A stretch of 64,000 bases of DNA from Terriglobia bacterium (lineage in GTDB: Bacteria; Acidobacteriota; Polarisedimenticolia; Polarisedimenticolales; JAIQFR01): positions 747-64,746 of the forward strand of contig JAIQFR010000012.1 of assembly GCA_020073205.1 (NCBI GenBank), written 5' to 3'. The position numbers and the translations under genes are program-made. Under the pieces are notes generated by a model. The model did not search any database and was not told the origin of the DNA. It worked only from the letters and a program-made list of their open reading frames with translations. Shown piece by piece: positions 7,427-31,254 of this stretch (position 1 is the first letter of the stretch; every line of letters begins with the position of its first letter).

Positions 7427-7455
7427 CTCGCCGAGAGGCCGCTTAGCATCGACGC

Positions 7456-8619: not shown

Positions 8620-8642
8620 AGCATCGGTCGGGAGAGGGTCGC

Positions 8643-13796: not shown

Positions 13797-13808
13797 GGGG
13801 CCGCGGGG

Positions 13809-14603: not shown

Positions 14604-14751
14604 CCGCTCCCCAGGGGGGTTCCCCCGCGACCGCAACATCGTACCGGGTGGGACAGGCCGTGTCGACGTCTCCGTTATGATCGTACCCGGCCTCTCCGGG
14701 GCCCGGTCGCGCCGATCGCGCGGGGCGATCCCGGAGTGCGGATCCCGAGCC

Positions 14752-15807
14752 ATGCGCTCCGCCGTCGCGTTCGTCGAGACGTCGCCCGGCACCCTCGCGG
14801 TCGCCGAGGGGGATCTGCGCCGGCTCGCGAGCCCGCCCGACGGGGTGGGGGCTTTCTACGCGCCCGACTTCCGGCTCGCCGACCCCGCGCCCTGGCGGGT
14901 TCCGACCTCCGAGGCCCGCGCCACCCTCCCGTTGCGCGCCTTTCTCGAGGAGTTCTCGCGGCGGGGCCCGGCGGGATCGCTCCCGGAGTGGACCGCTCCC
15001 GACGAGCCCAGGTTCGTGCGCGCCTACCGCTCGCTCGCCGCGTCGTTCGCGCGCGGCGATCTCCTCAAAGGGGTCCCGGTCACGCGGGCCTGCGCGGCGT
15101 GGCCCGACGACGAAGCGGAGCCGCTGTTCCGGCGGCTCCTGTCGAGGATCGGCTCGCTGCCCGAGGGGCTGCACCCTTACGGCCTCCTGGGTCCCGCGCG
15201 CGATGGCGCGGGGTCCGAGTTCATCGTCGGCGCGACCCCCGAGATCCTCTTCGATCGTCGGGGACGCGGCACGATCCGGTCGGAGGCGATCGCGGGAACT
15301 CGCGTCGTCGGGTCGGCGGCGCCGCCGCTCCTCTCCGACCCGAGGATCCGCGAGGAGCACGGTCGCGTCGTCCACGACCTCGTCGAGCGGATGTCGCTCT
15401 GGGGCCCTCCCGAGGCGACCGCTCCGCGGCCGTGCGCCTTCGGGACGCTCGAGCACCTCGTGTCCGTCGTCGGGATCGAGACGGCCGGCGGGCCTGCCTT
15501 CGACGAGATCGCGCGGCACCTCCATCCGACCGCGGCGCTCGGGAGCTACCCGCGAGGCGCCGCGGGATCGCGCTGGCTCGAGGAGATCGACCCTCTGGGC
15601 GAGCGAGGGAGCTTCGGCGCCCCGTTCGGATTCAGGTACCCCGACGGGACCGGCCGCTGTCTGGTCGCGATCCGAGGAATCCGTTACCTTGGCGGGAGGC
15701 TCGAGATCTGGGCGGGGTGCGGGGTCGTCCCCTCGAGCCGTTACGACGACGAGTGGCGGGAGGCGTGCGACAAGATCCGGGCCGTGAGGTCGTTGTGGGG
15801 GATCTGA
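14752..15807 (+). CDS. menF: Isochorismate synthase (short MenF type)
   Basis: Listed ORF 14413..15807 was trimmed to ATG 14752. GATPEILF, AIAGT, REEHGRVV, HPTAALGSYP and AGCGVVPSS...E are chorismate-binding enzyme motifs. It sits immediately upstream of menD. Confidence 0.85.
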   Translation: MRSAVAFVETSPGTLAVAEGDLRRLASPPDGVGAFYAPDFRLADPAPWRVPTSEARATLPLRAFLEEFSRRGPAGSLPEWTAPDEPRFVRAYRSLAASFARGDLLKGVPVTRACAAWPDDEAEPLFRRLLSRIGSLPEGLHPYGLLGPARDGAGSEFIVGATPEILFDRRGRGTIRSEAIAGTRVVGSAAPPLLSDPRIREEHGRVVHDLVERMSLWGPPEATAPRPCAFGTLEHLVSVVGIETAGGPAFDEIARHLHPTAALGSYPRGAAGSRWLEEIDPLGERGSFGAPFGFRYPDGTGRCLVAIRGIRYLGGRLEIWAGCGVVPSSRYDDEWREACDKIRAVRSLWGI

Positions 15808-15818
15808 GCGCTCCCGGG

Positions 15819-17411
15819 GTGCCGGGTGCGGAAGGCGGGGTCAACGAGGCGCTCGCGATCGAGATCGTCGAGCGGCTGTGGCGATCCGGCGTGCGCACCT
15901 TCTGCGTATGCCCGGGGGGACGGAACGCGCCGATCGTGGAGGTCCTCGACGCGCTGCCTCGCGACCGCGCGTCGGTGCTCGGATTCTTCGAGGAGCGCGC
16001 GGCGGCGTTCTTCGCGCTCGGCCGCGCGCGCCGCGATCGCGCCCCCGTCGCGGTCGTGACCACCTCGGGCACCGCGGCGGCCGAGCTGCTGCCGGCCGCC
16101 GTCGAGGCGTTCTACGCGGGGGTACCGCTGGTCCTCGTCACCGGGGACCGCCCGGCCTCGTACCGAGGGACCGGCGCGCCGCAATCGATCGAGCAGGCGG
16201 ACCTCCTCGGGCGCCACGTCGCGCGCGCGATCGACCTCGACCGGCCGGGGACGTCTTGGAGCCTCGGCGATCCGCGGGGCCCCGTTCACGTCAACGCGTG
16301 CTTCGACGAGCCGCTTCCCGGCGCGCGCGCCGGGGCCGGCCCGCTCCTCGAGGAGCGGCCAAGAGGCCTGCCGCCGTCCCCCGCCGACGCCGCGATCGCG
16401 CGCGAGGTCGGCACCTTCCTCAGGAGCCACGATCGTCCTCTCGTCGTCGTGGGGCCGCTCGACGACGAGCGCGACGCGGCGGACGTGCTGGCCTTCTGCC
16501 GCTCCCTCGGGGCGCCGGTCATCGTCGAGGCGTCGTCCGGTCTTCGGGAGCGTGTCGGCGCGCTCCGGCTCCGGGGTGGGAACCTGTCCGCCCGACTCGC
16601 GCTCGACCGCGGCGAGGTGAACGCGGTCCTTCGCCTCGGCGGCGTGCCGTCGTTTCGCGTCTGGCGCGATCTCGAGGCCGCGATCGCGGCGCCGGTCCTG
16701 TCGCTGTCGCGGTGGCGGTGGAGCGGGCTCACGCGTGGGCGCCATCTCGAGGTGCACTCCGGCGGGCCGTTGCCGCTCTCCCGCGTCGAAGCGGCGATCT
16801 CGCCGGCCGCCTTCGCGGCGACCTTCGCGCGCGACCGCGCGATCGCGTCGAGGGCGAAGGCGCTCGTCGAGCGGTTCCCCTTCAGCGAGCCCGCGCTCGT
16901 GCGGCGTCTGTCGCTCGCGATCCCGCGAGGAGCGCTCGTCTACCTCGGAAACAGCCTCCCGATCCGGGAGTGGAACGAGTACGCGGGGGAGGAGGATCGC
17001 GGCTTGAGGGTGCGGGACAGCCGCGGCGCCAACGGCATCGACGGGCAGGTGTCGACGTTCCTCGGCCTCGCCGGGCCCGATCGCGAGAGCTGGGCGATCG
17101 TCGGTGACCTGACCGCCCTCTACGATCTCGCGTCGCTCTGGGCCTTGAGGCACCTCGAAGGCCACGTGGTCCGGATCGTCGTCGTGAACAACGGGGGAGG
17201 ACGGATCTTCGAGCGGATGTTCCCCAATCCCGTCTACCAGAACCGTCACGCCCTTCGCTTCGAGGCGTGGGCGAAGCTGTTCGACGCCGACTACCGCGAG
17301 GGAGTCCCCGACGCGCCCCTCGGCCGATTCGCGGTCGTCGAGTGTCGGCCCGACGATGCCGAGACGGCGGCCTTCTGGACCGAGCTGAGGCGCGGGGCGG
17401 TCCCGCCATGA
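15819..17411 (+). CDS. menD: 2-succinyl-5-enolpyruvyl-6-hydroxy-3-cyclohexene-1-carboxylate (SEPHCHC) synthase
   Basis: This is the C-terminal part of listed ORF 13923..17411. GTG 15819 (alternative GTG 15795) precedes [30 protein letters not shown]...[10 protein letters not shown]...VTGDRP and the ThDP motif GDLTALYDL...NNGGGRIF. Confidence 0.88.
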
Positions 17412-18196
17412 CGCCTCCCCCGCGGTTCCTGGTGGTGGCGATCCACGGGTTTCTCGGCCGGCCGTCGGACTGGGATCCCGTCGTCCCGCACCTCCCGCGG
17501 GCACGCCTCCGTCCCATCGACCTGTGGCCGGTCTTGGACGGCACTCGCGCGGGGTGGGACACCGTCGGCGCGTCCCTCGGGCGCGCCGTCGACGACGTGC
17601 TGGCCCGCGACACGCTGCGTCCCGCGATCCTCGCCGCCTACTCGTTCGGTGCGCGACTCGCGCTCGCCGTCCCCGGGCTCGATGCGGGCGAGGGGGCGCT
17701 CGCCGCCGCCTGCCTCGTCTCGGCCCACCCGGGTCTTTCCGACGAGAGGTCCCGCCTCGCGCGGAGGGCGGCCGACCGCGAGTGGGCGCGGCGGCTCCTC
17801 GAGGATCCGGAAGAGGACGTGCTGCGCGACTGGGACGCGCAGCCGGTGCTGGCACGGAGCGGCGCGCGGGGCGCGGGGCGCCGGTTTCCCGCCTCGCGCG
17901 AGACGCTCGCCGCGGCGATGACGGGGCTCTCCCTCGCGGAGCAGCCCGACTTCAGGCCCCGCCTGGCCGCGTGGCGGGCGCCGCTCCTCTGGATCGCCGG
18001 GGGGGACGACGCGAAGTTCGCGGGTCTCGCCGGCGAGATCGCGGCGATCGGGCTCGCCGCGGACGTCGAGATCGTCGCGGGGGCCGGCCATCGCGTTCCC
18101 TTCGACGCGCCCGCCGCGTTCGCGAGGGCCTTCACGAGCTGGGTCGACAAGCGCGTCCCGCGCCGCGGCGACGCCGACGGGACGAGGAGGACGTGA
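17408..18196 (+). CDS. menH: Alpha/beta hydrolase, SHCHC synthase candidate
   Basis: ATG 17408 overlaps the menD stop (ATGA). [10 protein letters not shown], nucleophile elbow [10 protein letters not shown] and C-terminal [11 protein letters not shown] are present. Position between menD and menB supports the call. Confidence 0.8.
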
Positions 18197-19026
18197 TGGA
18201 GGTGGGCCAGACGGCGTGGGAAACGGTCAAGGAGTACGAGGACATCCGGTTCCTCAAGACGGCGGACGGCGTCGCCAAGGTGGTGATCGACCGGCCGGAG
18301 CGGCGGAACGCGTTCCGCCCGCGGACGGTGGCCGAGCTGATCGACGCTTTCGAGACGTGTCGCGAGGATCCGTCGATCGGCGTCGTCATCCTGACGGGAG
18401 CCGGGGACAAGGCGTTCTGCTCGGGGGGTGACCAGAAGATCCGCGGCGACCAAGGGTACCTGGACGAGCGCGGGGTGCCGCGGCTGAACGTCCTCGACCT
18501 GCAGAAGCTGATCCGTTCGCTCCCGAAGCCGGTCATCGCGATGGTGGCAGGGTACGCGGTCGGCGGAGGCCACGTGCTGCACGTGGTGTGCGACCTGACG
18601 ATCGCGGCCGACAACGCCGTGTTCGGCCAGTCCGGGCCGAAGGTCGGCTCTTTCGACGGCGGCCTCGGATCGAGCTACCTGGCGCGGATCGTCGGACAGA
18701 AGAAGGCGCGGGAGATCTGGTACCTCTGCCGCCGGTACGACGCGCGGCAGGCGCTCGACATGGGGCTCGTCAACCACGTCGTGCCGCTCGCCGACCTCGA
18801 GCGAGTCACCCTCGAGTGGGCCCGCGAGATCCTGGAGCACTCTCCCCTCGCGATCCGCTGCCTCAAGGCGGCGCTCAACGCCGACTGCGACGGACAGATC
18901 GGGCTCCTCGATCTCGCGGGGAACGCGACGCTCCTCTACTACATGTCGGAGGAGGCGAAGGAGGGGAGGAAGGCGTTCGTGGAGAAGCGGAAGCCGGACT
19001 TCAGGAAGTTCACCCGCGTTCCCTGA
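18196..19026 (+). CDS. menB: 1,4-dihydroxy-2-naphthoyl-CoA synthase
   Basis: ATG 18196 overlaps the menH stop by 1 nt. [39 protein letters not shown] and [21 protein letters not shown] are classic MenB crotonase-fold motifs. Confidence 0.95.
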
Positions 19027-19043
19027 CACGCGGGAGGACGGAG

Positions 19044-19943
19044 TTGGCAAGAGTGTCCGCTCGTGTGTGGCTCCTCGCCGCGCGCCCGAAGACGCTGACC
19101 GCGAGCGTCGCCCCCGTGACGGTCGGCACGGCGCTCGCGACGGCCTTTGGGCCGCGCCCGATCTCGCTCCACCTCCCGGCCCTCGCGCTGCTCTCCGCGA
19201 TCTCTATCCAGATCGGCACGAACCTCGTCAACGACGCGTCGGATTTCACGAGGGGAGCCGACGCCGACGGGCGGCTCGGACCGCTGCGCGTCGCGCAGGG
19301 CGGGCTCGCGACGCCCGGACAGGTCATGGCGGCGGCGGCGGTCTTCTTCGCGCTCGCGGCGTGCCTCGCCGTCCCGCTGGTCGTCGCGGGAGGGATCCCG
19401 GTGCTCGTCATCGGGCTCCTCTCGGTCGCCGCCGGCTACGCCTACACCGCCGGCCCGCTCCCCCTCGCGTACGTCGGCCTCGGCGAGGCGTTCGTGCTCC
19501 TGTTCTTCGGCTTCGCCGCGGTGGAGGGGACGTGCCTCGTGCTCGCGCGATCGACGCTGCCGCCGTGGTCCGAGGTGGCGTCGCTCCAGGTGGGGCTCCA
19601 GAGCGCGACGCTGCTCGCCATCAACAACCTCCGCGACGTCGAGGGAGACCTCGCCGCGGGGAAGCGCACGCTCGCGGCCCGATTCGGGATTCCGTTCGCC
19701 CGGGCGGAGATCGCGGTCACGGTGCTGGCGCCGTTCGTCCTCGGCGGGGCGTGGCTCGCGGCGGGCCGCCCTTGGGCGGCGGCGCTCCCGCTCGCCCTGC
19801 TCCCGCTCGCGATCTCGCTCGTGGTCGGCGCGGCGAGAGAGCCCCCGAGCCCACGATTCAACCCGCTCCTCGCGCGGAGCGCGCTCCTCCAGCTCGCCTT
19901 CGCGGTGCTCCTCGCGATCGGGCTCTCGATCCCGGGGAGGTGA
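19044..19943 (+). CDS. menA: 1,4-dihydroxy-2-naphthoate polyprenyltransferase
   Basis: This is the C-terminal part of listed ORF 18588..19943. TTG 19044 (GGGAGGA 5 nt upstream) or GTG 19053 is the likely start. It is a UbiA-family membrane protein with NLVNDASD and NNLRDVEGD Asp-rich motifs. Confidence 0.88.
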   Translation: MARVSARVWLLAARPKTLTASVAPVTVGTALATAFGPRPISLHLPALALLSAISIQIGTNLVNDASDFTRGADADGRLGPLRVAQGGLATPGQVMAAAAVFFALAACLAVPLVVAGGIPVLVIGLLSVAAGYAYTAGPLPLAYVGLGEAFVLLFFGFAAVEGTCLVLARSTLPPWSEVASLQVGLQSATLLAINNLRDVEGDLAAGKRTLAARFGIPFARAEIAVTVLAPFVLGGAWLAAGRPWAAALPLALLPLAISLVVGAAREPPSPRFNPLLARSALLQLAFAVLLAIGLSIPGR

Positions 19944-21196
19944 CGTGTGGAGGAGCCCGGGGGCGCGCCGTCGTGAAGCTCGGCTCCCACTTCGACGCCG
20001 AGACTCGATTCGACTGGCTCGACCGCGAGCCGGCCGTCGTCGCGAACCCCGAGTGGGCGCTCCGGCGCCCCGGCGATCTCGCGGCCGCGAAGCGCGCCCT
20101 GCCGAGGCTCGAGGCGCACGTGTGGGTCGCGACCTCCGGCACCTCGGGCCGGTCCGCGGGCGCCCGTTGGGTCGCGCTCTCGAAGGAGGCCTTCCTCGCC
20201 TCGGCGAGCGCGGTCAACGCACACCTCGACTCGCGCTCGCACGACGTGTGGGTCCACGCCCTCCCGCTCTTCCACGTCGGCGGGCTCGGCATTCTCGCGC
20301 GGGCCTCGCTGTCGGGAGCGCGGGTCGTCGCGGGGATCGAGGAGCGCTGGGACCCCGGGACCTTCGCGGAGCGCGCCGCGGCGGCCGGAGCCACGCTGAC
20401 GGCGCTCGTCCCGGCCCAGGTCCACGACCTCGTATCGGCGGAGATCCCCTCGCCGCCGGCGATCCGGGCCGTCGTCGTCGGAGGCGACCGGCTCGATCCC
20501 GCGCTCTGGCGGGCCGCGAAGTCGCTGGGCTGGCCGTGCCTCCCGAGCTACGGGATGACCGAGACCTGCTCGCAGGTCGCGACCGCACCCCTCGCGTCGA
20601 TCGAGGCACCCGGTCCGCCGTCCGCCCTTGCCGCGCTGCCGCACGCCGAGATCCGGTGCGGAGAGGAAGGGAGAATCGAGATTCGCGCCACGTCGCTCCT
20701 GACGGCCTACGCGGAAATCGAGGGCGACGCGGTCCGGGCATGGGACCCGAAGCGCGACGGATGGCTCGAGACGGACGATCTCGGCCGCGTGGCCGGCGGC
20801 TCCGTCGAGGTGTGGGGCCGGGCCGGCGAGGCGGTCAAGGTCCTGGGGGAGATCGTCCTCCTCCCTCGGGTGGAGTCGCGCCTCGAGGGATGGACCGCCG
20901 GCGACCCGTGGCTCAGGGAGAGGGTTCTCGACGTGGCCCTCGTCGCGAGACCCGATCCGAGGCTCGGCCACGAGCTGACGCTCGTGGTCGCGTCCGGCGA
21001 CCCGGCGCTCGCCGCGCCCCCCGCGCTCGATCGTCTGGCGCGCTCCCTGCGGGAGTTCGCGAGAGCCGAGCTGCTCCCGTTCGAGCGGCCGCGGCGCGTC
21101 GTCTTCCTCGACCGGATCCCGAGGAACGAGCTCGGCAAGAAGCGCCGGGACGCGCTAGCGCTCGAAGTGGGCCTCCATACGGGCCTTGATGTCTGA
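19940..21196 (+). CDS. menE: o-succinylbenzoate-CoA ligase (adenylate-forming)
   Basis: GTG 19940 overlaps the menA stop (GTGA); GTG 19973 is an alternative. TSGTSGRSAG (AMP-binding P-loop), SYGMTET, TDDLG and GKKRR are adenylation-domain motifs. Confidence 0.85.
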   Translation: MTCGGARGRAVVKLGSHFDAETRFDWLDREPAVVANPEWALRRPGDLAAAKRALPRLEAHVWVATSGTSGRSAGARWVALSKEAFLASASAVNAHLDSRSHDVWVHALPLFHVGGLGILARASLSGARVVAGIEERWDPGTFAERAAAAGATLTALVPAQVHDLVSAEIPSPPAIRAVVVGGDRLDPALWRAAKSLGWPCLPSYGMTETCSQVATAPLASIEAPGPPSALAALPHAEIRCGEEGRIEIRATSLLTAYAEIEGDAVRAWDPKRDGWLETDDLGRVAGGSVEVWGRAGEAVKVLGEIVLLPRVESRLEGWTAGDPWLRERVLDVALVARPDPRLGHELTLVVASGDPALAAPPALDRLARSLREFARAELLPFERPRRVVFLDRIPRNELGKKRRDALALEVGLHTGLDV

Positions 21197-21574
21197 CGGG
21201 ATCGGGACCTTCGCCCCCCGAACGAGGTCGGCGAAGACGTGCGTGACCCGCGTCTCGGCGCACCGCTTCGGCTCCCCCTGCTCCATGTCGAAGAACTGCG
21301 TCGTCACCTCGAACGAAGACTCCCCGATCTTGGTGATCCGGATCTCGGCGTCGTAGCTCCTCCCCGGCCGGAGCGGCTGCTCGAAGATCGCCTCCGCGCG
21401 GCGAATGGGCACCGCGACGCTCGCGTCCCGGAACCAGCTCGCCCACGAGGTGCCGAGCTCGTCGGTCACGAACCCCTCGTAGACGCGGTGCGCGACCTCG
21501 AGGAGCCGCGCGAAGAAGAGAACCCCGGCCGGGTCGGCCTGGTCGAAGTGGATCGTCACCGGTCGTCGATACAT
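21155..21574 (-). CDS. Hotdog-fold (4HBT/YbgC-like) acyl-CoA thioesterase, DHNA-CoA thioesterase candidate
   Basis: Listed ORF 21155..21616 was trimmed to ATG 21574 (MYRRPVTIHFDQADPAGVLFFARLLEV = 4HBT catalytic Asp context). It converges on menE with a 42-nt 3' overlap. Confidence 0.75.
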   Translation of the reverse strand: MYRRPVTIHFDQADPAGVLFFARLLEVAHRVYEGFVTDELGTSWASWFRDASVAVPIRRAEAIFEQPLRPGRSYDAEIRITKIGESSFEVTTQFFDMEQGEPKRCAETRVTHVFADLVRGAKVPIPSDIKARMEAHFER

Positions 21575-21732
21575 CGCTCGGATTCTCCACGCGGCGACGG
21601 CCGCCACGAGGACCATACACGAACCCCGGCCGCCGCCGCCAACGTCTCCCGGAGTATGCTTCGGGGTGCCGGGCCTCCGTTCGGACGGTCCCCAGGGTCG
21701 GGCCGATTCGAAGCGGGGACGAAAGGGCCGTC

Positions 21733-23538
21733 ATGCGAACCCATCGCCCGGATCGACTCTCGGTCCTGTGCGTCCACGGGATCGGCCACGGCGACGCGGA
21801 CGCGTCGCTCGTCCCGTCGTGGACCGACGCGATCACCCAGGTCGTCCATCGCTGGCAGCCGGGGTGCGCCGTCGACCTAGAGTTCCTGCGCTACGACGAC
21901 CTCTTCGATCACGCCCCGCTCGATCTCGCCGTGTACGGCCGGGCGCTGGCGGAGATCCTGGCCAGCGGCGCCGTCCACGGAATCGGAGATTTCCTCGGCG
22001 GGGCGCGCGGGCTTCACGACCTTCCCGATCAGGTCCGCTGGACCGCCGGGATGATCGCGCAGTGGGCCACGGAGGACGGCCTCCGCGACGGGCTGCGCCG
22101 GCGTCTCCTCCAGGCGATGAGGGACCGTGAGCCCGATCTCGTGTGCGCGCACAGCCTCGGCTCTCTGATCGCCTACGACACGTTCCGCCGCAACCCGGGG
22201 GTCCTCGCGGGGAAGACGCTCCTGACATTCGGATCCCAGATCGGCAACCCGTTCGTCCGCGACGCGTTCGCGGGGCGGATCGAGCCGCTCGACGCCCGGG
22301 CCTGGTATCACCTCTTCAATCCCGCCGACCGCGTCTTCACGTCGCGGCTCAGGATTGAAGCGCCGAACTTCGTCGAGGTCCTGACGGAGTTCGACAAGCC
22401 GAACGACGTCATCAACCACGACCCCGTCTGCTACATGAGCCACCCGGACGCCCAGGCGCGGGTGTGGGCCGAGATCGCGGGCGGCGGCCCCCCGAGAAGC
22501 GTGGCGCGCGCGTTTCGCGCGATGCAGGGCTTCGCGAAGCGGCCCGACCGCCGCGCCCTCCTGGTCGGGATCAACGCGTACCCCGACCCTGCGAACCGCC
22601 TCGAGGGGTGCGTCAACGACGTGTTCCTGATGAGCTCGGTGCTCCAGGAGTGCGGTTTCGGCCCGGAGGAGATCCGCGTGGTCCTCGACGAGCGGGCGAC
22701 GGCGCAAGGGATCCTCGAGCGCCTCCACTGGCTCCTCGACGACGTCGACGGCGGCGCCGAGCGGGTGCTCTTCTACTCGGGGCACGGCGCCCAGATCCCG
22801 AGCTACGACGTCCGCGGGGAGGTCGACCATCTCGACGAGTGCCTCGTGCCGTACGACTTCGACTGGACCCCCGCGCGCGCCATCCGGGACAAGCAGTTCG
22901 TCGAGTTCTACAGCCAGCTCCCCTACGACGCGCGCTTCGTCGCGATCTTCGACTGCTGCCACTCCGGGGGGATGAACCGCGAGGGCGGGGCCCGTCCGCG
23001 CGGCATCGAGCCGCCGGACGACATCCGCCACCGCGCGCTCGAGTGGGATCTTACGCTCCAGATGTGGCGGGAGCGCAAGCTCCGGCCGCAGAACCCGACC
23101 CTCGCGGGGTCGAAGGTGGGGAGCGCGTATCTCGGGCGGCGCGGCGTCACGCACCGGTTCGGCCGAGGGATGGCGCTGCGCTCCCTGCCGTCGTCGACCT
23201 ACGACCGCGAGCGCAAGAGGCTCCGCCACCGCGGCGCCTATCTTCCCGTGATCCTCGAGGCGTGCCAGGAAGCCGAGCTCTCCTACGAGTATCGAGACGG
23301 GGCGACGTCTTACGGCGCGTTCACGTACTGCCTCGCCAAGGTGCTCCGGATCGTCCGCGGCCAGGGGCAGAATCCCACGTTCCGTGAACTCACCGAGCGG
23401 ACCGCCGGCCGGCTCCGGGCGCTCGACTACCGGCAGACGCCGGCGCTCGTCGGCGCGAGGCCCCTGCTCGACGAGGCGATCCCGTGGTCACGGCGGCCGC
23501 GCCCGCGCCGGGCCCGGCGAGGAGGAACCGATCGATGA
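21733..23538 (+). CDS. Fusion protein: N-terminal alpha/beta-hydrolase (lipase/esterase-like) domain + C-terminal metacaspase-like peptidase C14 domain
   Basis: N-domain: VLCVHGIGHG and nucleophile elbow AHSLGS (Ser codon 22153..22155). C14 domain: RRALLVGINAYP...GCVNDV, YSGHGAQ (His codon 22783..22785), FDCCHSGG (Cys codon 22957..22959) and a p10-like EACQEAELSYEY..SYGAFTYCL. No signal peptide. Confidence 0.88.
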   Translation: MRTHRPDRLSVLCVHGIGHGDADASLVPSWTDAITQVVHRWQPGCAVDLEFLRYDDLFDHAPLDLAVYGRALAEILASGAVHGIGDFLGGARGLHDLPDQVRWTAGMIAQWATEDGLRDGLRRRLLQAMRDREPDLVCAHSLGSLIAYDTFRRNPGVLAGKTLLTFGSQIGNPFVRDAFAGRIEPLDARAWYHLFNPADRVFTSRLRIEAPNFVEVLTEFDKPNDVINHDPVCYMSHPDAQARVWAEIAGGGPPRSVARAFRAMQGFAKRPDRRALLVGINAYPDPANRLEGCVNDVFLMSSVLQECGFGPEEIRVVLDERATAQGILERLHWLLDDVDGGAERVLFYSGHGAQIPSYDVRGEVDHLDECLVPYDFDWTPARAIRDKQFVEFYSQLPYDARFVAIFDCCHSGGMNREGGARPRGIEPPDDIRHRALEWDLTLQMWRERKLRPQNPTLAGSKVGSAYLGRRGVTHRFGRGMALRSLPSSTYDRERKRLRHRGAYLPVILEACQEAELSYEYRDGATSYGAFTYCLAKVLRIVRGQGQNPTFRELTERTAGRLRALDYRQTPALVGARPLLDEAIPWSRRPRPRRARRGGTDR

Positions 23539-24740
23539 GCGAGATCGCGCAGTGGACCTGGATCGTGTACATGGCCGGCGACAACAACCTCGAGGACGCG
23601 GGGCGCTCGGACCTCGGGGAGATGAAGCGCATCGGCTCGACCGCGGACGTCAACGTCGTCGTCCAGTTCGACACCGAGTCGAAACGGACGACGAGGTACC
23701 GCGTCGAGAAGAACCGGCTCAAGACGATCCAGGAGATGCCCGGAGTGGACTGCGGCGATCCCAAGGTCCTGGCCGGGTTCGCGCAGTGGGCCGTGAAGAC
23801 CTTCCCCGCGCGTCACTACCTGCTCGACGTCTGGAATCACGGCGGCGGATGGGAGAACCTCCCCGCGGACTACGACTACGATTCCATCCGCCTCGCCAAG
23901 CCGACGCGCGCCGCGCGCCTCCGCCGCCTCAAGCGCTCGCTGTTCCGCACCACCGTGGCGAAGATCCACCGGCGCGGCGCCGCCGCGCGCGCGATCGCGA
24001 TCGATTGCGGCTCGCACGACTACCTCGACAACCGCGAGCTCAGGAGCGCGGTGTCGAGGGCGTTTCCTCCCGGACGGAAGCTCGACGTCCTCGGCTGCGA
24101 CGCGTGCCTCATGAACATGATCGAGATCGCGTACGAGATGAAGGACGGCGCTCGCTTCATGGTCGGCTCCGAGGAAACGGAGCCCGCCGCCGGGTGGCCC
24201 TACGCAGCGATCCTGAAGGCGCTGGTCGGGAAGCCCGCGACGAGCCCCGCGGACCTCGCGAAGCGGATCGTCGTCGAGTACGGTAGGTACTTCAAGCGCA
24301 GAGGCGAAGCGGCGACGCAATCGGCCCTCGACCTCTCCCGCGTGACCGCCCTGGCCGGGGCCGTCGACGAGCTGGCCGTCGCGCTTCTCGCCGATCTCGA
24401 AGCGGTCGCGGGGACCGTGAGCCTCGCCCGGGACCGGGCGCAGAAATTCGAGATGCCGGAGTACGTCGACCTCGGAGACTTCGCCGCGCAGCTCGCCAAG
24501 CGCCTTCCACGGAGCGCCGCCGTGCAGGCCGCGGCGGCGAAGGTGCGAGCGGGACTCGATCCGGGCGGCGCCGAGCCGCTCGTCATCGGGAACGCGACCG
24601 CGGGGGCTTCCGTCGCCCGCTCGACCGGGGTATCGATCTACTACCCCCATCGCGAGGACTACTCGCCGGACTACGCGGAGTTGCGCTTCAGCAGGGACGT
24701 GAAGTGGCACCGGTTGCTGCAGGGGATGTTCAAGGCCTGA
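23535..24740 (+). CDS. Clostripain-family (peptidase C11) cysteine protease
   Basis: ATG 23535 overlaps the upstream stop (ATGA). WTWIVYMAGDNNLE, DVWNHGGGW (His codon 23838..23840), LGCDACLMNMIE (Cys codon 24105..24107) and GSEETEPAAGWPY are C11 hallmarks. No signal peptide. Confidence 0.88.
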   Translation: MSEIAQWTWIVYMAGDNNLEDAGRSDLGEMKRIGSTADVNVVVQFDTESKRTTRYRVEKNRLKTIQEMPGVDCGDPKVLAGFAQWAVKTFPARHYLLDVWNHGGGWENLPADYDYDSIRLAKPTRAARLRRLKRSLFRTTVAKIHRRGAAARAIAIDCGSHDYLDNRELRSAVSRAFPPGRKLDVLGCDACLMNMIEIAYEMKDGARFMVGSEETEPAAGWPYAAILKALVGKPATSPADLAKRIVVEYGRYFKRRGEAATQSALDLSRVTALAGAVDELAVALLADLEAVAGTVSLARDRAQKFEMPEYVDLGDFAAQLAKRLPRSAAVQAAAAKVRAGLDPGGAEPLVIGNATAGASVARSTGVSIYYPHREDYSPDYAELRFSRDVKWHRLLQGMFKA

Positions 24741-24769: not shown

Positions 24770-25708
24770 TCAGCGTGGCTCGGAGCCGGGCGACCACGTG
24801 AAGCGATGCGCGCGGCGCTCGCTTCCGCTGACCCAGTGACCGCGGGCCACGGCCGAGAAGGTGCGCGTCCGCTCGGCGAGGATCGGTCGCATCGTCGCGG
24901 TCTCGAGATCCACGGTCAACGTCTCGGTCACGGGGCTGAACTGCGCGTGCTCCAGGAATCGAGTGCTCGCGACCGTGTCGCCGTCTCCGAGCTCCCTGGC
25001 TTCGCGGGCCATGTCGATGAGGAACCCGCCCGTGTACCGGCGGACCGATTCCGACGGATAGACCGCCGCGGCCTCGAGCCGGGTCCGTCCCGCCGCGCCG
25101 CTCGACGACAGCCCTCGCCGCGTCGCCTTCACGGGCACGCGCGTGCCGTCGAGCTCCCATGCGCTTTCCGTCCGCGTCCACTCCCCCGGTTTCTGCCGGC
25201 TTCCGAGCCACGCTCCGACCCAGGCGTACCAGTCCCCGCTGGCGACGTCGCGAAGGAGGTTCTTGAAGGAGTCGAGACCCGGCGGCATTCCGGGGAATCC
25301 AGCGGCGGCGAGGACGCCGCGGGCGACTCCGTCGAGGTCGCGGCTTTCCGCGTAACGGCCGTCCCGGTCCACCAGGATCGTCGGCGTGGCGATCCTCATC
25401 ACGCGCGCGACGGCGATTCTCATGCCCGCGGGGTTCACGGAGGCGATCGGGACGTTGTCCACCGACACGATGCGGGCGTCGGAGAAGCGCAGGACCAGGC
25501 GATCGGACGTCGAGTCGGGCTCGACGCGGAGGTGCATCTCGATCACGACCGACCGCCGCTCGTCCCCCACGCTCCGCTCGTCGGAGAGCTCGATCGTCGC
25601 GTCGCCGCGCACCGGCCACGCGAAGCGCAACGTGCCCTCCGGCTCCGCCGGCCGCGCGGGCGGGACGACGAGGCCGAGGGCGAGGACCATCGCACGGAGA
25701 GCGCGCAT
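24770..25708 (-). CDS. Secreted hypothetical protein
   Basis: Listed ORF 24770..25864 was trimmed to ATG 25708 (MRALRAMVLALGLVVPPARPAE, signal-peptide-like). Composition is normal and no family was recognised. Confidence 0.55.
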   Translation of the reverse strand: MRALRAMVLALGLVVPPARPAEPEGTLRFAWPVRGDATIELSDERSVGDERRSVVIEMHLRVEPDSTSDRLVLRFSDARIVSVDNVPIASVNPAGMRIAVARVMRIATPTILVDRDGRYAESRDLDGVARGVLAAAGFPGMPPGLDSFKNLLRDVASGDWYAWVGAWLGSRQKPGEWTRTESAWELDGTRVPVKATRRGLSSSGAAGRTRLEAAAVYPSESVRRYTGGFLIDMAREARELGDGDTVASTRFLEHAQFSPVTETLTVDLETATMRPILAERTRTFSAVARGHWVSGSERRAHRFTWSPGSEPR

Positions 25709-25846: not shown

Positions 25847-27958
25847 ATGACGGATTCCGCGCACTCCAACGAAAGACCCGTGTCTGTCGAAGATCCCTTC
25901 GCCGCGCAGGCCGCGGCGCTACGCCAGTTCGACGAAGCGATCCTCAGCGCCAGAACTCAACTGGAGGAGTACGTGGCGGCCTGGATCGCGGACCTGACGT
26001 CCGCCCGGGCCAGCCAGCCTCAGGAAATCGACGACAGCATCACGGCGCGTCTCGCGGAAGCCGAGGGGCGGCTCGATCATCTTCGCGACGCGCTTCGGGA
26101 TGGCCCGGCGGCGCTCGGGGCGCGGGTTCAGTCGAGCGAGGCCGCGCGCACGGTCGCCCTAAGGGATCTGAGGCGCACGGTCGAGGAGCACGAGGAAGCG
26201 GGGAGGGTTCTCGCGGCCGCCAACGTGGAGCTGCGCGGTCAGATCGCGGATCGTGAACGGCTCGAAACCGAGCGGCGCGGTGCCGACCAGGACCTGCAGG
26301 AGATTCAGGCGCGCTTCGAGAACGCCTTCGCCAGCGCCCCGATCGGCATGGCCCTCGTCGACATGGAGGGTCGCTGGCTCCAAGTCAACGACGCTCTCTG
26401 TCGAATCACCGGCCATACGAGGGCCGCGCTGAAGGCGACGACGCTTCCGGCCATCACGTTTCCGGACGACATCGATTGCGACGCCGATGCCCTCCGGGAT
26501 CTCCTCGCCGGCCGGGTCCCGAGCTACCAGGCCGAGAAGCGCTATCGCCACGCCTGGGGGCACTATCTCTGGGTGATGCTCACGGTCTCCCTCGTCCGCG
26601 ATCACCGAGGTCGGCCGCTCTACGTCATCTCGCAGGTCCAGGACATCTCGGAGCGGAAGGAGATGGCGGCACGCCTCGATTTCCTGCTCGATCACGATTT
26701 CCTGACCGGTCTCTTCAATCGTCGTCGGTTCGAGCAGGAGCTGGCCCGGGAGGTCGAGCGGGCCTCGCGCTACGGCGCCAAGGGCGCCGTGCTCATGATC
26801 GATCTGGACAACTTCAAGGACGTCAACGACGCCTTCGGCCACAAGGCCGGCGACGATCTCCTCAAGGGCGTCGCCGGCGCGCTGAGGCATCGGGTGCGCC
26901 AAACGGACGTCCTGGCGCGGGTGGGAGGGGACGAGTTCGCCGCGCTGCTGCCGGAGACGGATGCCGACCAGGCCCAGATCGTGGCCGACGGGATCGTCAG
27001 AACCCTGCGGCAGAACGTCGCGGTCCTCGGCGAGCAATCGATCCGCGCCACGGCCAGCGTCGGGGTCGCCCTGTTCGACGGCCTGAGTGCCGCGGAGGTG
27101 CTGGCCTTCGCCGACCTCTCGATGTACGAAGCGAAACAGGCGGGTCGGAATCGAGTCGCGATGTACCGCCCGAGCGGGGGGCACCGCGAGCACGTGTCGG
27201 CGCGGCTCGCCGAGGCGGAGCTGGTCCGCAACGCCTTGGAGGAGGATCGCTTCATCCTCTACTGCCAGCCGATCGTCGACCTGAAGCGGAACGAGGTGCT
27301 CCAGTACGAGCTGTTGCTCAGGCTCCGCGGCGACGAGGGGCGCGAGCCGCTCCAGCCCAGCTCGTTTCTCTATGTCGCCGAGCGGTTCGGCCTGATCCAG
27401 GAGATCGACTGCTGGGTCGCGCGCCAGGCGGTCGCGCTGATCGCCGAGCACGCGCGCGCGGGCCGCAAGCTCGTGCTCCACGTCAACCTCTCGGGGAAGT
27501 CTATCGGCGATCCCAACGTGGCCGCTCTCGCCGAGAAGGCGATCGCGGACGCGGACATCGATCCCGCCTGTCTCGTCTTCGAGCTGACGGAGACGACGGC
27601 GATCGCCAACATCGAGGAGGCGAAGGCGTTCGCCCATCGTCTGCGCGCCCGCGGTTGCCGGTTCGCACTCGACGACTTCGGCGCGGGTTTCGGCTCCTTC
27701 TACTACCTCAAGTCCCTGCCTTTCGACTACTTCAAGATCGACGGCGACTTCATCCGAGGCATCGTCGCGAGTCCCATGGACCAGCTCGTGGTCGGGGCCA
27801 TCGTCGGCATCGCCAAGGGAATGGGCAAGAAGACGATCGCCGAGTTCGTCGCGGACGACGAAACCGCCCAGCTGCTCGAGAGGAGCGGCGTCGACTACGG
27901 GCAGGGCTACCACCTCGGCCGTCCGGGACCCGTGAGAGACGTTCTACCGTCGACGTGA
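25847..27958 (+). CDS. Coiled-coil - PAS - GGDEF - EAL c-di-GMP turnover protein
   Basis: PAS (FENAFASAPIGMALVD...). GGDEF with intact GGDEF and an RQTD I-site 5 residues upstream. EAL domain with QYELLLR (ELL variant), NLS, FELTET, DDFGAGFGS, KIDG and GQGY. Confidence 0.92.
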   Translation: MTDSAHSNERPVSVEDPFAAQAAALRQFDEAILSARTQLEEYVAAWIADLTSARASQPQEIDDSITARLAEAEGRLDHLRDALRDGPAALGARVQSSEAARTVALRDLRRTVEEHEEAGRVLAAANVELRGQIADRERLETERRGADQDLQEIQARFENAFASAPIGMALVDMEGRWLQVNDALCRITGHTRAALKATTLPAITFPDDIDCDADALRDLLAGRVPSYQAEKRYRHAWGHYLWVMLTVSLVRDHRGRPLYVISQVQDISERKEMAARLDFLLDHDFLTGLFNRRRFEQELAREVERASRYGAKGAVLMIDLDNFKDVNDAFGHKAGDDLLKGVAGALRHRVRQTDVLARVGGDEFAALLPETDADQAQIVADGIVRTLRQNVAVLGEQSIRATASVGVALFDGLSAAEVLAFADLSMYEAKQAGRNRVAMYRPSGGHREHVSARLAEAELVRNALEEDRFILYCQPIVDLKRNEVLQYELLLRLRGDEGREPLQPSSFLYVAERFGLIQEIDCWVARQAVALIAEHARAGRKLVLHVNLSGKSIGDPNVAALAEKAIADADIDPACLVFELTETTAIANIEEAKAFAHRLRARGCRFALDDFGAGFGSFYYLKSLPFDYFKIDGDFIRGIVASPMDQLVVGAIVGIAKGMGKKTIAEFVADDETAQLLERSGVDYGQGYHLGRPGPVRDVLPST

Positions 27959-28115
27959 GGCGGCGCGCTCCCGGAGGGAGCATGACGTCGCCTCCCCCGC
28001 CTACGTGGTCGGGTTCGGTGGCGCTCGCCTGACCCTGTGGCGTGACGCCGCCACCTGGAAGAGAATTCCGTCCGCCGCCGATCCCCGGGAGGGATCCGGC
28101 AATGGGAGGTGTCGC

Positions 28116-29075
28116 GTGATCGCGGTCGAAGGCCTGACCAAACGTTTCGTGGACCGGGACGCGGTCGCCAACGTGTCCTTCTTCGTGCCGGAGGGGGAGG
28201 TGCTCGGCTTCCTCGGCCCCAACGGCGCCGGCAAGACGACCACCATGCGGATGATCACCGGCTTCCTGCCGGCGACGTCCGGCAGCGTCCGCGTCGCCGG
28301 GATCGACCTCGCGCGCGACCCCCTCGGCGTGCGGGCCCGGATCGGCTACCTCCCCGAGAACGTGGCGCTCTACCCCGAGATGCGGGTCTCGGAGTACCTG
28401 CGCTTCCGGGCCGCCATCGAGGGGGTGCCGCGGAAGGATGTCGCCGCGCGGGTCGACGACGCCTCCGGCCGCACGATGATCGGCGACGTGCGGCGTCAGC
28501 TGATCGGCACTCTCTCGAAGGGTTACCGCCAGCGCGTCGGCCTCGCCAGCACGCTCTTGCACCGACCGCCGGTGCTGATCCTCGACGAGCCGACGGTGGG
28601 GCTCGACCCGCGCCAGATCGTCAACATCCGCGAGCTGATCGTCGCGCTGGGGAAGGACCACACGGTGATCCTCTCGACGCACATCCTCCCCGAGGTCGAG
28701 CAGGTGTGCCGACGGGTGCTGATCATCGACGAGGGCAAGCTGATCGCCGACGGCACGCCGGAGCAGCTGCGCACCGGCCTCGCCGGCGCCGCCGAGGTGG
28801 TCACGGAGCTCGACGCCCCCGAGGCGGACGCCCGCGCCGCGCTCGAGCGGCTCCCCGGCGTCGGCGCCGTGCGCGCGGACGGCCCCGGCCGATTCCGCCT
28901 CTCGGTCGAGGGGGGCGGCGACCTGCGCCGCGCGGTGTTCTCCCTCGCGGTCGAGAAAGGATGGGTGCTGCTCGAGCTGAGCCAAACCGTTCCGTCGCTC
29001 GAGGACATCTTCCTGCGCCTGACCACCCGCGACGCCGCGGCGCCCGAGGCGGCGGCGGAGGTGGCCCGTGCGTAA
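28116..29075 (+). CDS. ABC transporter ATP-binding protein (GldA-like, ABC-2 type)
   Basis: GTG 28116 with GGGAGG 6 nt upstream, inside listed ORF 28005..29075. Walker A GPNGAGKTT, signature LSKGYRQR, Walker B ILILDEP. Confidence 0.92.
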   Translation: MIAVEGLTKRFVDRDAVANVSFFVPEGEVLGFLGPNGAGKTTTMRMITGFLPATSGSVRVAGIDLARDPLGVRARIGYLPENVALYPEMRVSEYLRFRAAIEGVPRKDVAARVDDASGRTMIGDVRRQLIGTLSKGYRQRVGLASTLLHRPPVLILDEPTVGLDPRQIVNIRELIVALGKDHTVILSTHILPEVEQVCRRVLIIDEGKLIADGTPEQLRTGLAGAAEVVTELDAPEADARAALERLPGVGAVRADGPGRFRLSVEGGGDLRRAVFSLAVEKGWVLLELSQTVPSLEDIFLRLTTRDAAAPEAAAEVARA

Positions 29076-29808
29076 GAGCCTGGCACTCGTCCGGCGCGAG
29101 CTCACGGCGTACTTCTCGTCGCCGCTCGCCTACGTGGTGCTGACCGCGTTCCTGTTCTTCAACGGGTACGTGTTCTGGCTGATCATCGCATTCCTCAACG
29201 ACCCGCGCACGCAGGCGATGGCGCCGCTCAGGCTGATGTTCGGCGGCACGCTCTTCTTCTGGCTGCTCCTGCTGTTCGTGGTGCCGGTGATCACCATGCG
29301 GCTGCTCGCCGAGGAGCGCCGCACCGGCACCCTAGAGGTGCTGCTCACCTCGCCGGTGAGCGAGGGCCAGGTGGTGATCGCGAAGTTCGTCGCGGCGCTG
29401 ATCTTCTACCTGTTCCTCTGGCTACCGACGGTGGTCTACGTGCTCATCCTCGGCAGCTACTCGAGCATCGACCCGGGGCCGGTGGGAGCGGGCTACCTGG
29501 GCATCGCTCTCTTGGGCGTCCTGTTCGCCGCCATCGGTTTGCTGACCTCGGCGCTCACGCGGAACCAGATCGTCGCCGCGATCTTCGCGTTCGCGCTCCT
29601 GATGGTGCTGTTCTCGATCGGGCTGCTCGAGCAGCTCGCCACATCTCCGTCGCTCAAGAGCGCGCTCTCCTACATGAACCTCTGGGACCACATGGACGAC
29701 TTCGCGCGCGGCCTCGTCGACACCCGCCACGTCGTCTACGACCTCAGCCTCGCAGGGCTGTTCCTCTTCCTCGCGACCAAGGCCCTCGAGGCCAAGAAGT
29801 GGAGGTGA
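29068..29808 (+). CDS. ABC-2 type transporter permease (GldF-like)
   Basis: GTG start overlaps the ATPase gene by 8 nt. It has six hydrophobic segments, and the EERRTGTLEVLLTSP motif is typical of ABC-2 permeases. Confidence 0.88.
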   Translation: MRKSLALVRRELTAYFSSPLAYVVLTAFLFFNGYVFWLIIAFLNDPRTQAMAPLRLMFGGTLFFWLLLLFVVPVITMRLLAEERRTGTLEVLLTSPVSEGQVVIAKFVAALIFYLFLWLPTVVYVLILGSYSSIDPGPVGAGYLGIALLGVLFAAIGLLTSALTRNQIVAAIFAFALLMVLFSIGLLEQLATSPSLKSALSYMNLWDHMDDFARGLVDTRHVVYDLSLAGLFLFLATKALEAKKWR

Positions 29809-29811
29809 GCG

Positions 29812-31245
29812 GTGAAGAAGGAGACCGTCGTCACCACCTCGGCGACCGCCGTCGCCGTCGTCCTCGCCGTCGTCCTCACCGGGATGGTCAACTGGCTCGG
29901 CTTCCGCCACTACGCGCGCGGCGACTGGACGAGGTCGCGGATCTACTCCCTCTCCGGGAAGACCCTGGGCGTGCTCAAGGGGGTCGCCTCCGAGGTCGAC
30001 GCGGTCGTCTTCATGACCCCGTCGACGCCGCTCTACGCCGAGGTCAAGGAGCTGCTCGAGCGCTACCAGGCCGAGGCGCCGAAGCTGAAGGTCGAGTTCA
30101 TCGATCCCGAGCGCGACCCGCTCCGGACCCGCAAGCTCGTCCAGGACTTCGGCGTTTCCGCCCCCAACACGGTGGTGTTCTCGTCCGCCGGCCGGAAGAA
30201 GTACGTGACCTCCGACGAGCTCGCCGATTACGACTATTCCGGGATGCAGCTCGGGCAGCAGCCCAGGATGACGGGGTTCAAGGGCGAGGAGCAGTTCACC
30301 GCCGCGATCCTGGGGGTCGCGAACCCGAAGCAGCCGAAGATCTACTTCTCGACCGGCCACGGGGAGCGCGATCTCGGCGGGACGGCGGAGGACGGCCTCT
30401 CGCAGTTCAAGGAGGCGCTCAAGCGGGACAACCTCGACGCCGGGACCGTCAGCCTGCTCAAGGGGAAGGTGCCGGCCGACTGCGACCTCTTGGTGATCGC
30501 CGGCCCCGGCGCGCCGTTCGCCGATCTCGAGCGCGCGGCCGTCAGGGCGTACCTCGATCGGGGGGGGCGCGTGCTGATCCTGCTCGACCCGGTGCTCGGG
30601 GCGAAGGCCCGACCCTCGGGGCTCGAGGACCTCGTCAAGGCCTACGGCGTGCAGTTCGACGACGACCTCGTCGTCGATCCCGACAAGGCGGTGCCGTTCG
30701 TCGGCCTCTCGACCGTGTTCGCCGACGAGTTCCGCAGCCACCCGGTGGTCGACTCCATGAAGGGGCTGGCGGTGGTGCTGCCGGTGACCCGCTCGGTGAC
30801 CACCGCCACCGCCGACGGCGCGACGTCGACGCAGCTCCTCACGACCTCCGCGGGAGGGTGGGGCGAGCGCGATCTCGCCGCGGTGGAGGCGGGCAGGGGG
30901 ATCAAGAAGGACCCGACCGACGTCCAGGGCCCGGTGCCCCTGGGCGTGGCGGCCGAGTCGGCGAAGGACAGGAAGAACGGCTTCAGGCTGGTGGCCTTCG
31001 GGAACTCGTACTTCGTCTCCAACGGGGAGGTCTCCAACGCCGGCAACCTCAACCTGGCCCTGAACTCGGTGAACTGGCTGGCCCGGCGGGAGGAATCGCT
31101 CGGCATCGCGCCGCGCGCGCCGGAGCAGGTGCAACTCCTCCTGTCGCGCGGGCAGATGCGCTCCATCACCCTGATCTCGCTGCTCGGACTGCCGGGGATG
31201 GCGATCGTGCTCGGGGCCGCGGTCTGGTGGCGGCGGCGGCGGTAG
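29812..31245 (+). CDS. GldG-like ABC transporter auxiliary protein
   Basis: N- and C-terminal TM anchors flank a large soluble domain (IYFSTGHGERDL). Position after the ABC-2 permease matches the gldAFG arrangement. Confidence 0.8.
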   Translation: MKKETVVTTSATAVAVVLAVVLTGMVNWLGFRHYARGDWTRSRIYSLSGKTLGVLKGVASEVDAVVFMTPSTPLYAEVKELLERYQAEAPKLKVEFIDPERDPLRTRKLVQDFGVSAPNTVVFSSAGRKKYVTSDELADYDYSGMQLGQQPRMTGFKGEEQFTAAILGVANPKQPKIYFSTGHGERDLGGTAEDGLSQFKEALKRDNLDAGTVSLLKGKVPADCDLLVIAGPGAPFADLERAAVRAYLDRGGRVLILLDPVLGAKARPSGLEDLVKAYGVQFDDDLVVDPDKAVPFVGLSTVFADEFRSHPVVDSMKGLAVVLPVTRSVTTATADGATSTQLLTTSAGGWGERDLAAVEAGRGIKKDPTDVQGPVPLGVAAESAKDRKNGFRLVAFGNSYFVSNGEVSNAGNLNLALNSVNWLARREESLGIAPRAPEQVQLLLSRGQMRSITLISLLGLPGMAIVLGAAVWWRRRR

Positions 31246-31254
31246 GAGTCCGCG

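Follow-up and report, generated by a model that had tools for sequence, protein, structure and literature searches.

Two overlapping genes for cysteine peptidases of clan CD, located at positions 21,733 to 24,740 of a stretch of DNA from a Terriglobia bacterium (Acidobacteriota; contig JAIQFR010000012.1 of assembly GCA_020073205.1), raise the question of whether they constitute a functional unit and, if so, of which kind. An earlier note on this stretch, prepared from its letters only, read gene 1 as a fusion of a serine-hydrolase-like domain with a metacaspase and gene 2 as a clostripain-like C11 peptidase, and suggested a protease cascade or an abortive-infection-type module of undescribed architecture. 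The analysis described here, in which the window denotes the whole stretch of 64,000 nucleotides, leads to a related reading: by analogy to caspase/hydrolase pairs already reported from bacteria, the two genes would encode a fused, sensor-less variant of a protease-effector module, in which a metacaspase and a lipase-like hydrolase share one polypeptide chain and the C11 zymogen serves as an optional second arm. We judge the chances of this reading to be about even.

Gene 1 (21733..23538) encodes a protein of 601 residues and gene 2 (23535..24740) one of 401 residues; these genes and all of their features given below lie on the plus strand. Both open reading frames were found at the coordinates reported earlier, and their GC contents at third codon positions (GC3; 0.86 in gene 1 and 0.90 in gene 2) show the bias and periodicity expected for genuine genes in a window of 71% GC, so that both were taken as real, in agreement with their homologues and with gene calling by codon usage after training on the locus, which recovered the two genes plus a sensible set of neighbours. 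The start codon of gene 2 overlaps the stop codon of gene 1 (ATGA at 23535..23538), a Shine–Dalgarno sequence (GAGGAGG, 23519..23525) is present within the end of gene 1, 9 nt before the gene 2 ATG, and the homologues of gene 2 align from the same initiator Met, an arrangement that supports translational coupling of the pair. In Kyte–Doolittle scans of 19-residue windows, neither product shows a stretch hydrophobic enough to serve as a signal peptide or to span a membrane (maximum mean, 1.19 for gene 1 and 1.76 for gene 2, the latter within an acidic amphipathic stretch), which supports a cytoplasmic location of both. The gene structure, the absence of export signals and the positions of all six quoted catalytic motifs (VHGIGHG, AHSLGS, YSGHG, DCCHSG, WNHGGG, and DACLM) thus stand as the earlier note gave them.

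The C-terminal part of gene 1 (residues 273–573, 22549..23451) matches the Pfam family Peptidase_C14 (PF00656) with an E-value of 1.1e-27 and 97.7 bits against a cut-off of 21.4, confirming the proposed C14 peptidase. The catalytic dyad is formed by His351 in YSGHG (22783..22785) and Cys409 in DCCHSG (22957..22959), and His351, Cys408, and Cys409 are invariant among 25 homologues. Over its full length, the domain aligns with Arabidopsis metacaspase-9 (MC9; E = 1e-20), and also with MC4, TbMCA2, and yeast Mca1 (Yca1). The alignment with MC9 extends into the p10 region and pairs LDECLVPYDF of gene 1, part of the motif DECLVPYDFD, with QDEAIVPCDF of the plant enzyme; the acidic DExxxPxD motif, which lines the S1 pocket for basic residues in metacaspases, is therefore present in gene 1. 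Between the p20 and p10 parts lies a basic linker (residues 410–503, 22960..23241) with 21 Arg or Lys in 96 residues and a low predicted local distance difference test score (pLDDT) in the full-length model, which carries the candidate self-processing sites Arg423–Gly424 (22999..23004) and Arg478–Gly/Ala479 (23164..23169). The pairs Arg423–Gly, Arg478–Gly/Ala, and Arg483–Gly/Ser/Thr are conserved in 100% of 25 sequences.

Type II metacaspases are distinguished by a long p20–p10 linker with a self-processing site and by the lack of an N-terminal prodomain. With those of Arabidopsis (MC9 and MC4; C14B), gene 1 shares the p20–linker–p10 alignment, the His–Cys dyad, the DExxxPxD motif, and the long basic linker after the catalytic Cys; it differs from them in being bacterial, in carrying an N-terminal hydrolase domain, and in having a linker that is unrelated in sequence but highly conserved within its own family. 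Judged from these sequence features, the C14 domain is a complete, type-II-like metacaspase with predicted specificity for Arg or Lys, and by analogy to the biology of type II metacaspases, its linker would be self-processed. Among defense models, the 'caspase' model of PADLOC matches gene 1 with an E-value of 3e-18, the match covering only the first third of the model.

The N-terminal part of gene 1 (residues 1–250, 21733..22482) has no match to a known family in Pfam, NCBIfam, PADLOC, or the sequences of the Protein Data Bank (PDB), whether queried as a single sequence or as a profile, and its assignment to a lipase-like α/β-hydrolase relies on predicted topology together with residue conservation. 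An AlphaFold2 (AF2) model built from 15 homologues (pLDDT 77; predicted TM-score 0.80) contains six core strands, in which the HG oxyanion motif (His15–Gly16, 21775..21780; within VHGIGHG, residues 14–20) follows the first strand, Ser141 of the AHSLGS elbow (residues 139–144; Ser codon 22153..22155) is situated after strand 136–140 and before a helix, that is, at the position of the nucleophile elbow, Asp199 (22327..22329), the predicted triad acid, follows strand 190–195, and His229 (22417..22419), the predicted triad His, follows strand 213–217. The modeled order of Ser, Asp, and His is canonical for α/β-hydrolases. When a profile of the domain was run against 1.84 billion cluster representatives, 834 relatives were found, 214 of them with E < 1e-30; among the 134 best representatives, Ser141 is retained in 132 of 133, Asp199 in 130 of 131, His229 in 118 of 126, and His15 in 122 of 124. 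The Foldseek comparison of the model with the PDB gave weak and mixed hits (E of about 1e-4 to 1e-3), lipases being at the top by TM-score (0.43–0.53), with the Archaeoglobus fulgidus lipase 2zyh giving the best query-normalized value (0.43) and Bacillus subtilis LipA 1i6w the best target-normalized value (0.53). In LipA, the nucleophile elbow reads Ala-His-Ser-x-Gly. The N-domain resembles minimal lipases of this type in its predicted small α/β fold with six core strands and in its elbow motif, and departs from them in showing no detectable sequence homology and in having an insertion of about 80 residues between strands 2 and 3 of the model, which we regard as a putative lid. Taken with the near-invariant residues, the model indicates that the N-domain is very likely an active serine hydrolase with a minimal lipase-like α/β fold. 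The serine-hydrolase-like domain proposed earlier is thus supported by its predicted triad, although neither a sequence family nor a clear structural match has been found for it.

The putative lid holds a loop predicted to be disordered (residues 79–93, pLDDT < 50), at the end of which lies Arg92–Gly93 (22006..22011), 49 residues before Ser141. This pair is invariant in the close family, Arg or Lys occupies position 92 in 78% of the 134 representatives, and Gly comes next in 66% of those; in a distant homologue described below, an ERGL motif is placed 47 residues ahead of the corresponding Ser. The location of this candidate Arg|Gly activation site is best appreciated in comparison with published caspase/hydrolase modules. 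In the VMAP and GAP1 conflict systems, the caspase domain is accompanied, near-obligately, by a neighboring α/β-hydrolase gene (Kaur et al. 2020, PMC7159879), and in Lysobacter capsici, LcCaspase cleaves the lid region of the LcHydrolase zymogen at two sites, Arg73|Gly and Arg117|Gly, yielding fragments that kill Escherichia coli; lipases are the closest homologues of LcHydrolase, whose substrate is unknown (Evans et al. 2025, PMC12642450). In these modules, as in gene 1, a peptidase of the caspase superfamily has a lipase-like hydrolase of about 30 kDa as its genetic partner, and the described modules and the present one are alike in being cytoplasmic and patchily distributed (PMC7159879, PMC12642450). 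By its published description, LcHydrolase also resembles gene 1 in having Arg–Gly in a flexible lid-region loop before the nucleophile, and differs in having two such pairs spaced by 44 residues instead of a single conserved one. The present system differs further from the described modules in that both parts reside in one polypeptide and that a C11 peptidase is coupled to it. The pairing of a caspase with an α/β-hydrolase and the activation of the hydrolase zymogen had thus already been described, contrary to the earlier impression of an entirely new architecture; a literature search found no published description of the single-chain, sensor-less fusion with its C11 partner or of a C14–C11 pair.

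Gene 2 matches Peptidase_C11 (PF03415) with an E-value of 2.8e-47 and 162.4 bits against a cut-off of 25.8, confirming a second clan-CD peptidase. Its catalytic residues, His102 in WNHGGG (23838..23840) and Cys191 in DACLM (24105..24107), are invariant in 23 homologues; the family comprises 551 homologues, the best 120 of which show 55–74% identity over a length of about 401 residues. It is not clostripain proper, the equivalog model TIGR02806 giving 29.6 bits against a cut-off of 550. Its matches in the PDB are solved C11 enzymes, including one C11 zymogen (PmC11 3uws and 4yec, 6n9j, and the zymogen 6mzo), with which it shares the His/Cys dyad and a loop between the two catalytic residues. 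The two chains of self-processed PmC11 (3uws, 4yec) align to residues 8–114 and 181–281 of gene 2 and hence flank the basic loop of residues 118–157 (23886..24005), placing it at the position of the activating cut in solved C11 enzymes; 13 Arg or Lys are found within residues 110–160. From this alignment, gene 2 would be cleaved within the loop. It differs from the solved C11 enzymes and clostripain in lacking a signal peptide, in the distance of the similarity (best E, 2.6e-12), and in its much more basic loop.

Whether the two peptidases belong together can be examined from their neighborhoods in other genomes. In the best 80 of the 207 species loci of gene 1 homologues, a C11 gene is directly adjacent in nine (five upstream and four downstream), and all nine derive from lineages distant to gene 2 (33–52% identity over the aligned part). 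Conversely, of about 18 close orthologues of gene 2 (at least 59% identity, on metagenome contigs), nine have an adjacent gene 1 homologue, and the remainder adjoin unrelated genes, once an S8 subtilase. The closest pair (L163) has the same gene order and is co-directional in a wholly different neighborhood, the two homologues are divergent in another contig (L165), and a low-GC metagenome contig (L122; also L139) encodes a 567-residue α/β-hydrolase–C14 fusion followed by a 425-residue C11 peptidase. The two peptidase domains of this pair share only about 35% identity with their counterparts in the window, and its N-domain, which in L122 contains the ERGL motif mentioned above, is too diverged for tblastn. 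Co-localization of the fusion with C11 thus recurs far above chance, among close relatives as well as in a second C11 lineage and the distant low-GC pair, and is facultative; the persistence of this linkage through great divergence and three gene orientations indicates that it is functional, not accidental. The co-localization on which the earlier cascade proposal depended therefore holds as a recurrent association, although only nine of the 80 gene 1 loci, and roughly every second close orthologue of gene 2, take part in it.

The place beside the fusion is not reserved for C11. Other adjacent peptidases in the 80 loci are a small standalone C14 of about 270 residues (10 loci), an astacin-like metallopeptidase (4), and Peptidase_C70 (3), so that about one third of the loci, at the least, have a second peptidase beside the fusion; the true share may be higher, as short contigs are frequent. 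Of three long contigs examined, one has the small C14 gene next to a fusion, and in a related genome this gene stands alone at the same site in the chromosome. C11, small C14, astacin-like, and C70 peptidases thus replace one another as the partner. These observations bear on the idea that the pair is a mutually restraining couple, similar to a toxin–antitoxin system, in which one peptidase continuously breaks down or inactivates its partner, so that the toxic one is set free once synthesis ceases. Translational coupling, which fixes the stoichiometry, would suit such a couple, as would the preference for basic P1 residues that both enzymes have by family and the basic exposed loops that both possess. 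However, either gene often occurs without the other, partners are exchanged across unrelated peptidase families, and gene order and orientation vary, all of which is unusual for a tight toxin–antitoxin couple, and we consider this explanation very unlikely.

Some neighbors of the gene 1 homologues are of other kinds. Genes that overlap or nearly abut the homologue encode a pYEATS (prokaryotic YEATS domain) protein (L076:9770-10582), an Rv2525c-like glycoside-hydrolase/SH3 protein (L025:9856-11433), and a CSS-motif EAL protein (L075:9746-11422). In a metagenome-assembled genome of Gemmatimonadales (L050), a bacterial gasdermin gene (7143-7970; PADLOC bGSDM, E = 2.7e-71) ends 12 bp upstream of a fusion gene (at about 7983-9761) with 55% identity to gene 1. 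No other gasdermin was found among the 61 same-strand neighbors scanned; this neighborhood and the match of gene 1 to the PADLOC 'caspase' model recall the systems in which bacterial gasdermins are combined with caspase-like proteases, from which the present pair differs in that the window contains no gasdermin gene. A theme that is analogous, with different families, is found on the Pseudosulfitobacter plasmid NZ_CP085162.1 (L248, 10115..14805), where an operon for a patatin-like phospholipase, a 657-residue caspase family protein, and a serine protease combines a lipase, a caspase, and a second protease, and recurs on 46 Pseudosulfitobacter plasmids.

The astacin-like and C70 peptidases, together with peptidoglycan-binding and SH3 domains and a glycoside-hydrolase-like protein among the neighbors elsewhere, might alternatively suggest that the enzymes are exported weapons or digestive enzymes, acting on other cells or on extracellular substrates after release by lysis or through a non-classical pathway. 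Secretion is known for characterized C11 enzymes, among them clostripain and PmC11. Yet the products of gene 1 and gene 2 have neither a signal peptide nor a membrane segment, the N-termini of both families start directly with the first core strand, and among the annotated genes, which comprised only the neighbors, neither a secretion-system gene nor a conserved neighbor of this kind was found. Export is accordingly regarded as improbable, to about the same degree as a mutually restraining couple.

The distribution of gene 1 speaks to a third alternative, in which the two genes encode physiological enzymes without a role in defense, that is, a regulated cytoplasmic protease/esterase for stress adaptation, for protein or lipid turnover, or for developmental remodeling, with C11 as a loose helper or as a neighbor drawn from the accessory gene pool. 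In total, 1730 homologues of gene 1 were found, the best 120 of which are all full length with 58–73% identity, and the hydrolase and C14 domains are fused in a single chain in most of the relatives. In a scan of one genome per species, relatives occur in 207 species genomes (about 0.1%) from many phyla, the hosts including Methylomirabilota, Nitrospirota, Usitatibacter, Sulfuriferula, Bradyrhizobium, Cupriavidus, the Pseudomonas mandelii group, Geomonas, Gemmatimonadota, Planctomycetota, and Chloroflexota. Their flanks are non-syntenic and differ between genomes, giving a patchy distribution that is independent of genomic context. Longer relatives carry, in addition to the core, an N-terminal Phosphoesterase domain (phospholipase-C/AcpA family) or a C-terminal phospholipase-D-like (PLD-like) or ALO oxidase-like domain; the phospholipase-C-like (PLC-like) and PLD-like fusions fit the theme of a lipid-directed effector. 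Giant relatives are exemplified by P0272, P0317, P0330, and P0374 (1050–1153 residues), P0283 (1166 residues), and P0277 (1353 residues). In two related genomes (L252 and L253), NMT1-like and LysR genes surround a small C14 gene of 270 residues in different arrangements, and a fusion gene of 587 residues follows the small C14 gene directly in L253 and is missing from L252, which suggests that related genomes vary in whether they carry the fusion.

A physiological role would agree with the very high sequence conservation across phyla, with the lack of a sensor or a defense-island context in the window, with the heterogeneous neighbors elsewhere and the predominance of solitary gene 1 homologues, and with the finding that relatives of C11 and of the small C14 also occur alone. 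On the other hand, the patchy occurrence and non-syntenic insertion of the family, its repeated linkage with other degradative enzymes and once with a gasdermin, the PLC-like and PLD-like fusions, and the published precedent of a caspase–hydrolase death module (PMC7159879, PMC12642450) are less readily reconciled with such a role. We regard it as a possible explanation, on the unlikely side, and as the most probable of the alternatives to a fused protease-effector module.

Several observations weigh against the reading of the pair as a fused protease-effector module. With regard to structure, the AF2 model of full-length gene 1 is poor (pLDDT 65), so that contacts between its domains are not readable, and the Foldseek comparison lends the hydrolase fold little support, flavodoxin-like and GT-B folds appearing at similar E-values. 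A second conserved Arg–Gly in the lid region was sought in the relatives of the N-domain and was not found, only one being kept, and standalone genes for the N-domain exist (L246, 306 residues; L247, 295 residues) with no adjacent caspase gene called, although short open reading frames that might be remnants of decayed caspase genes lie immediately downstream on the opposite strand. With regard to context, no STAND, WD40, or vWA–MoxR sensor or NTPase is present in gene 1, gene 2, or the adjacent genes, in contrast to the described modules; most gene 1 homologues have no peptidase neighbor at all; and the enrichment in defense islands that a conflict system would suggest appears weak, the flanks in the window being housekeeping genes and PADLOC models matching only about one tenth of the 61 immediate neighbors. 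With regard to evolution, 58–73% identity across phyla is unusually high for a conflict gene, and no full-length relative of gene 1 was found in the plasmid collection, in which only the caspase domain was matched, or in viral contigs, in which the caspase domain alone was matched, mostly in giant-virus bins. In IMG/VR contigs (L166-L245), metacaspase-domain genes are common, with 25–42% identity to the C14 part only, and none of them has the hydrolase domain.

In the predicted mechanism of the fused protease-effector module, the two genes would be a mobile cassette encoding a self-contained cytoplasmic protease and a latent effector, and we infer from the described features and the published modules both the cleavages and their order, as well as the substrates, the trigger, and a death or defense phenotype. 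In the first step, a cue, possibly calcium entry, membrane damage, or a phage product, would activate the metacaspase, which would then process itself in the basic p20–p10 linker at Arg423|Gly and Arg478|Gly (second step). Cutting of the lid loop at Arg92|Gly93 by the activated metacaspase may next unmask the esterase or lipase activity of the N-domain (third step). Where C11 is present, the metacaspase may also cut its basic loop between His102 and Cys191, or conversely, C11 may cut the metacaspase (fourth step). The resulting breakdown of lipids and proteins would finally lead to growth arrest or cell death (fifth step).

A broader proposal may be put forward, although we consider it doubtful, and somewhat more so than a physiological role. 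The fusion might form the core of a modular, sensor-less 'executioner kit', in which a physiological danger cue (e.g., calcium entry or membrane damage) directly activates the metacaspase, thereby licensing its own lipase domain and a neighboring or fused enzyme, be it C11, a small caspase, an astacin-like or C70 peptidase, a gasdermin, or a fused PLC or PLD.

The surroundings of the cassette in the window are broadly as the earlier note described them, with menaquinone genes upstream and signaling genes downstream. Upstream lie chorismate and menaquinone genes in a contiguous aromatic/menaquinone block (12690..21616), consisting of chorismate synthase (12690..13793), a DAHP-synthase-family gene (13812..14603, minus strand), a MenF-like gene (14752..15804), MenD, MenH-like, MenB, MenA, and MenE, and ending in a divergent 4HBT_2 thioesterase gene (21158..21616, minus strand), which may encode the DHNA-CoA thioesterase of the menaquinone pathway. 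The 116-bp intergenic region between the thioesterase gene and gene 1, as delimited by the gene calls (21617..21732, no strand assigned), is presumed to be the promoter region of the cassette; it contains no match to the sigma-70 consensus, and a scan of the locus for promoters and terminators was uninformative. Downstream of gene 2 is a convergent gene (24770..25690, minus strand) for a protein of about 306 residues with a probable signal peptide (MRALRAMVLALGLVV) and without a Pfam match; it was considered as a third component of the cassette and rejected, as it is not conserved beside the pair elsewhere. It is followed, at 25880..32583, by genes for a PAS-GGDEF-EAL protein and for an ABC-2 transporter set (an ABC ATPase, an ABC-2 permease, an ABC_transp_aux protein, and a DUF4340 protein) that recalls the gliding-type GldA/F/G transporters. 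As for signs of a mobile element around the cassette, no tRNA, no Rfam family, and no clear shift in GC content was found, and flanking repeats do not exceed those expected by chance at 71% GC.

In prokaryotic immunity, the gating of death effectors by proteases is increasingly recognized as a common logic, which has so far been studied in systems in which a sensor domain triggers the protease. The gene 1 family would be a compact, single-chain version of this logic without a recognizable sensor, present in hundreds of species, among them cultivable hosts of the genera Pseudomonas, Bradyrhizobium, Cupriavidus, Sulfuriferula, and Geomonas. Even if the proposed model fails, the family is a large, conserved, and unnamed one whose sole annotation at present is 'caspase family protein'. 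Should the model hold, it would provide a tractable system for studying how a bacterial metacaspase is triggered, whether activation of one clan-CD protease by another takes place, and on which substrate caspase-associated hydrolases act; and if the broader, modular proposal were also true, the fusion would represent a bacterial protease cascade analogous to that of the initiator and executioner caspases, widespread in soil Proteobacteria, Methylomirabilota, Nitrospirota, and Planctomycetota.

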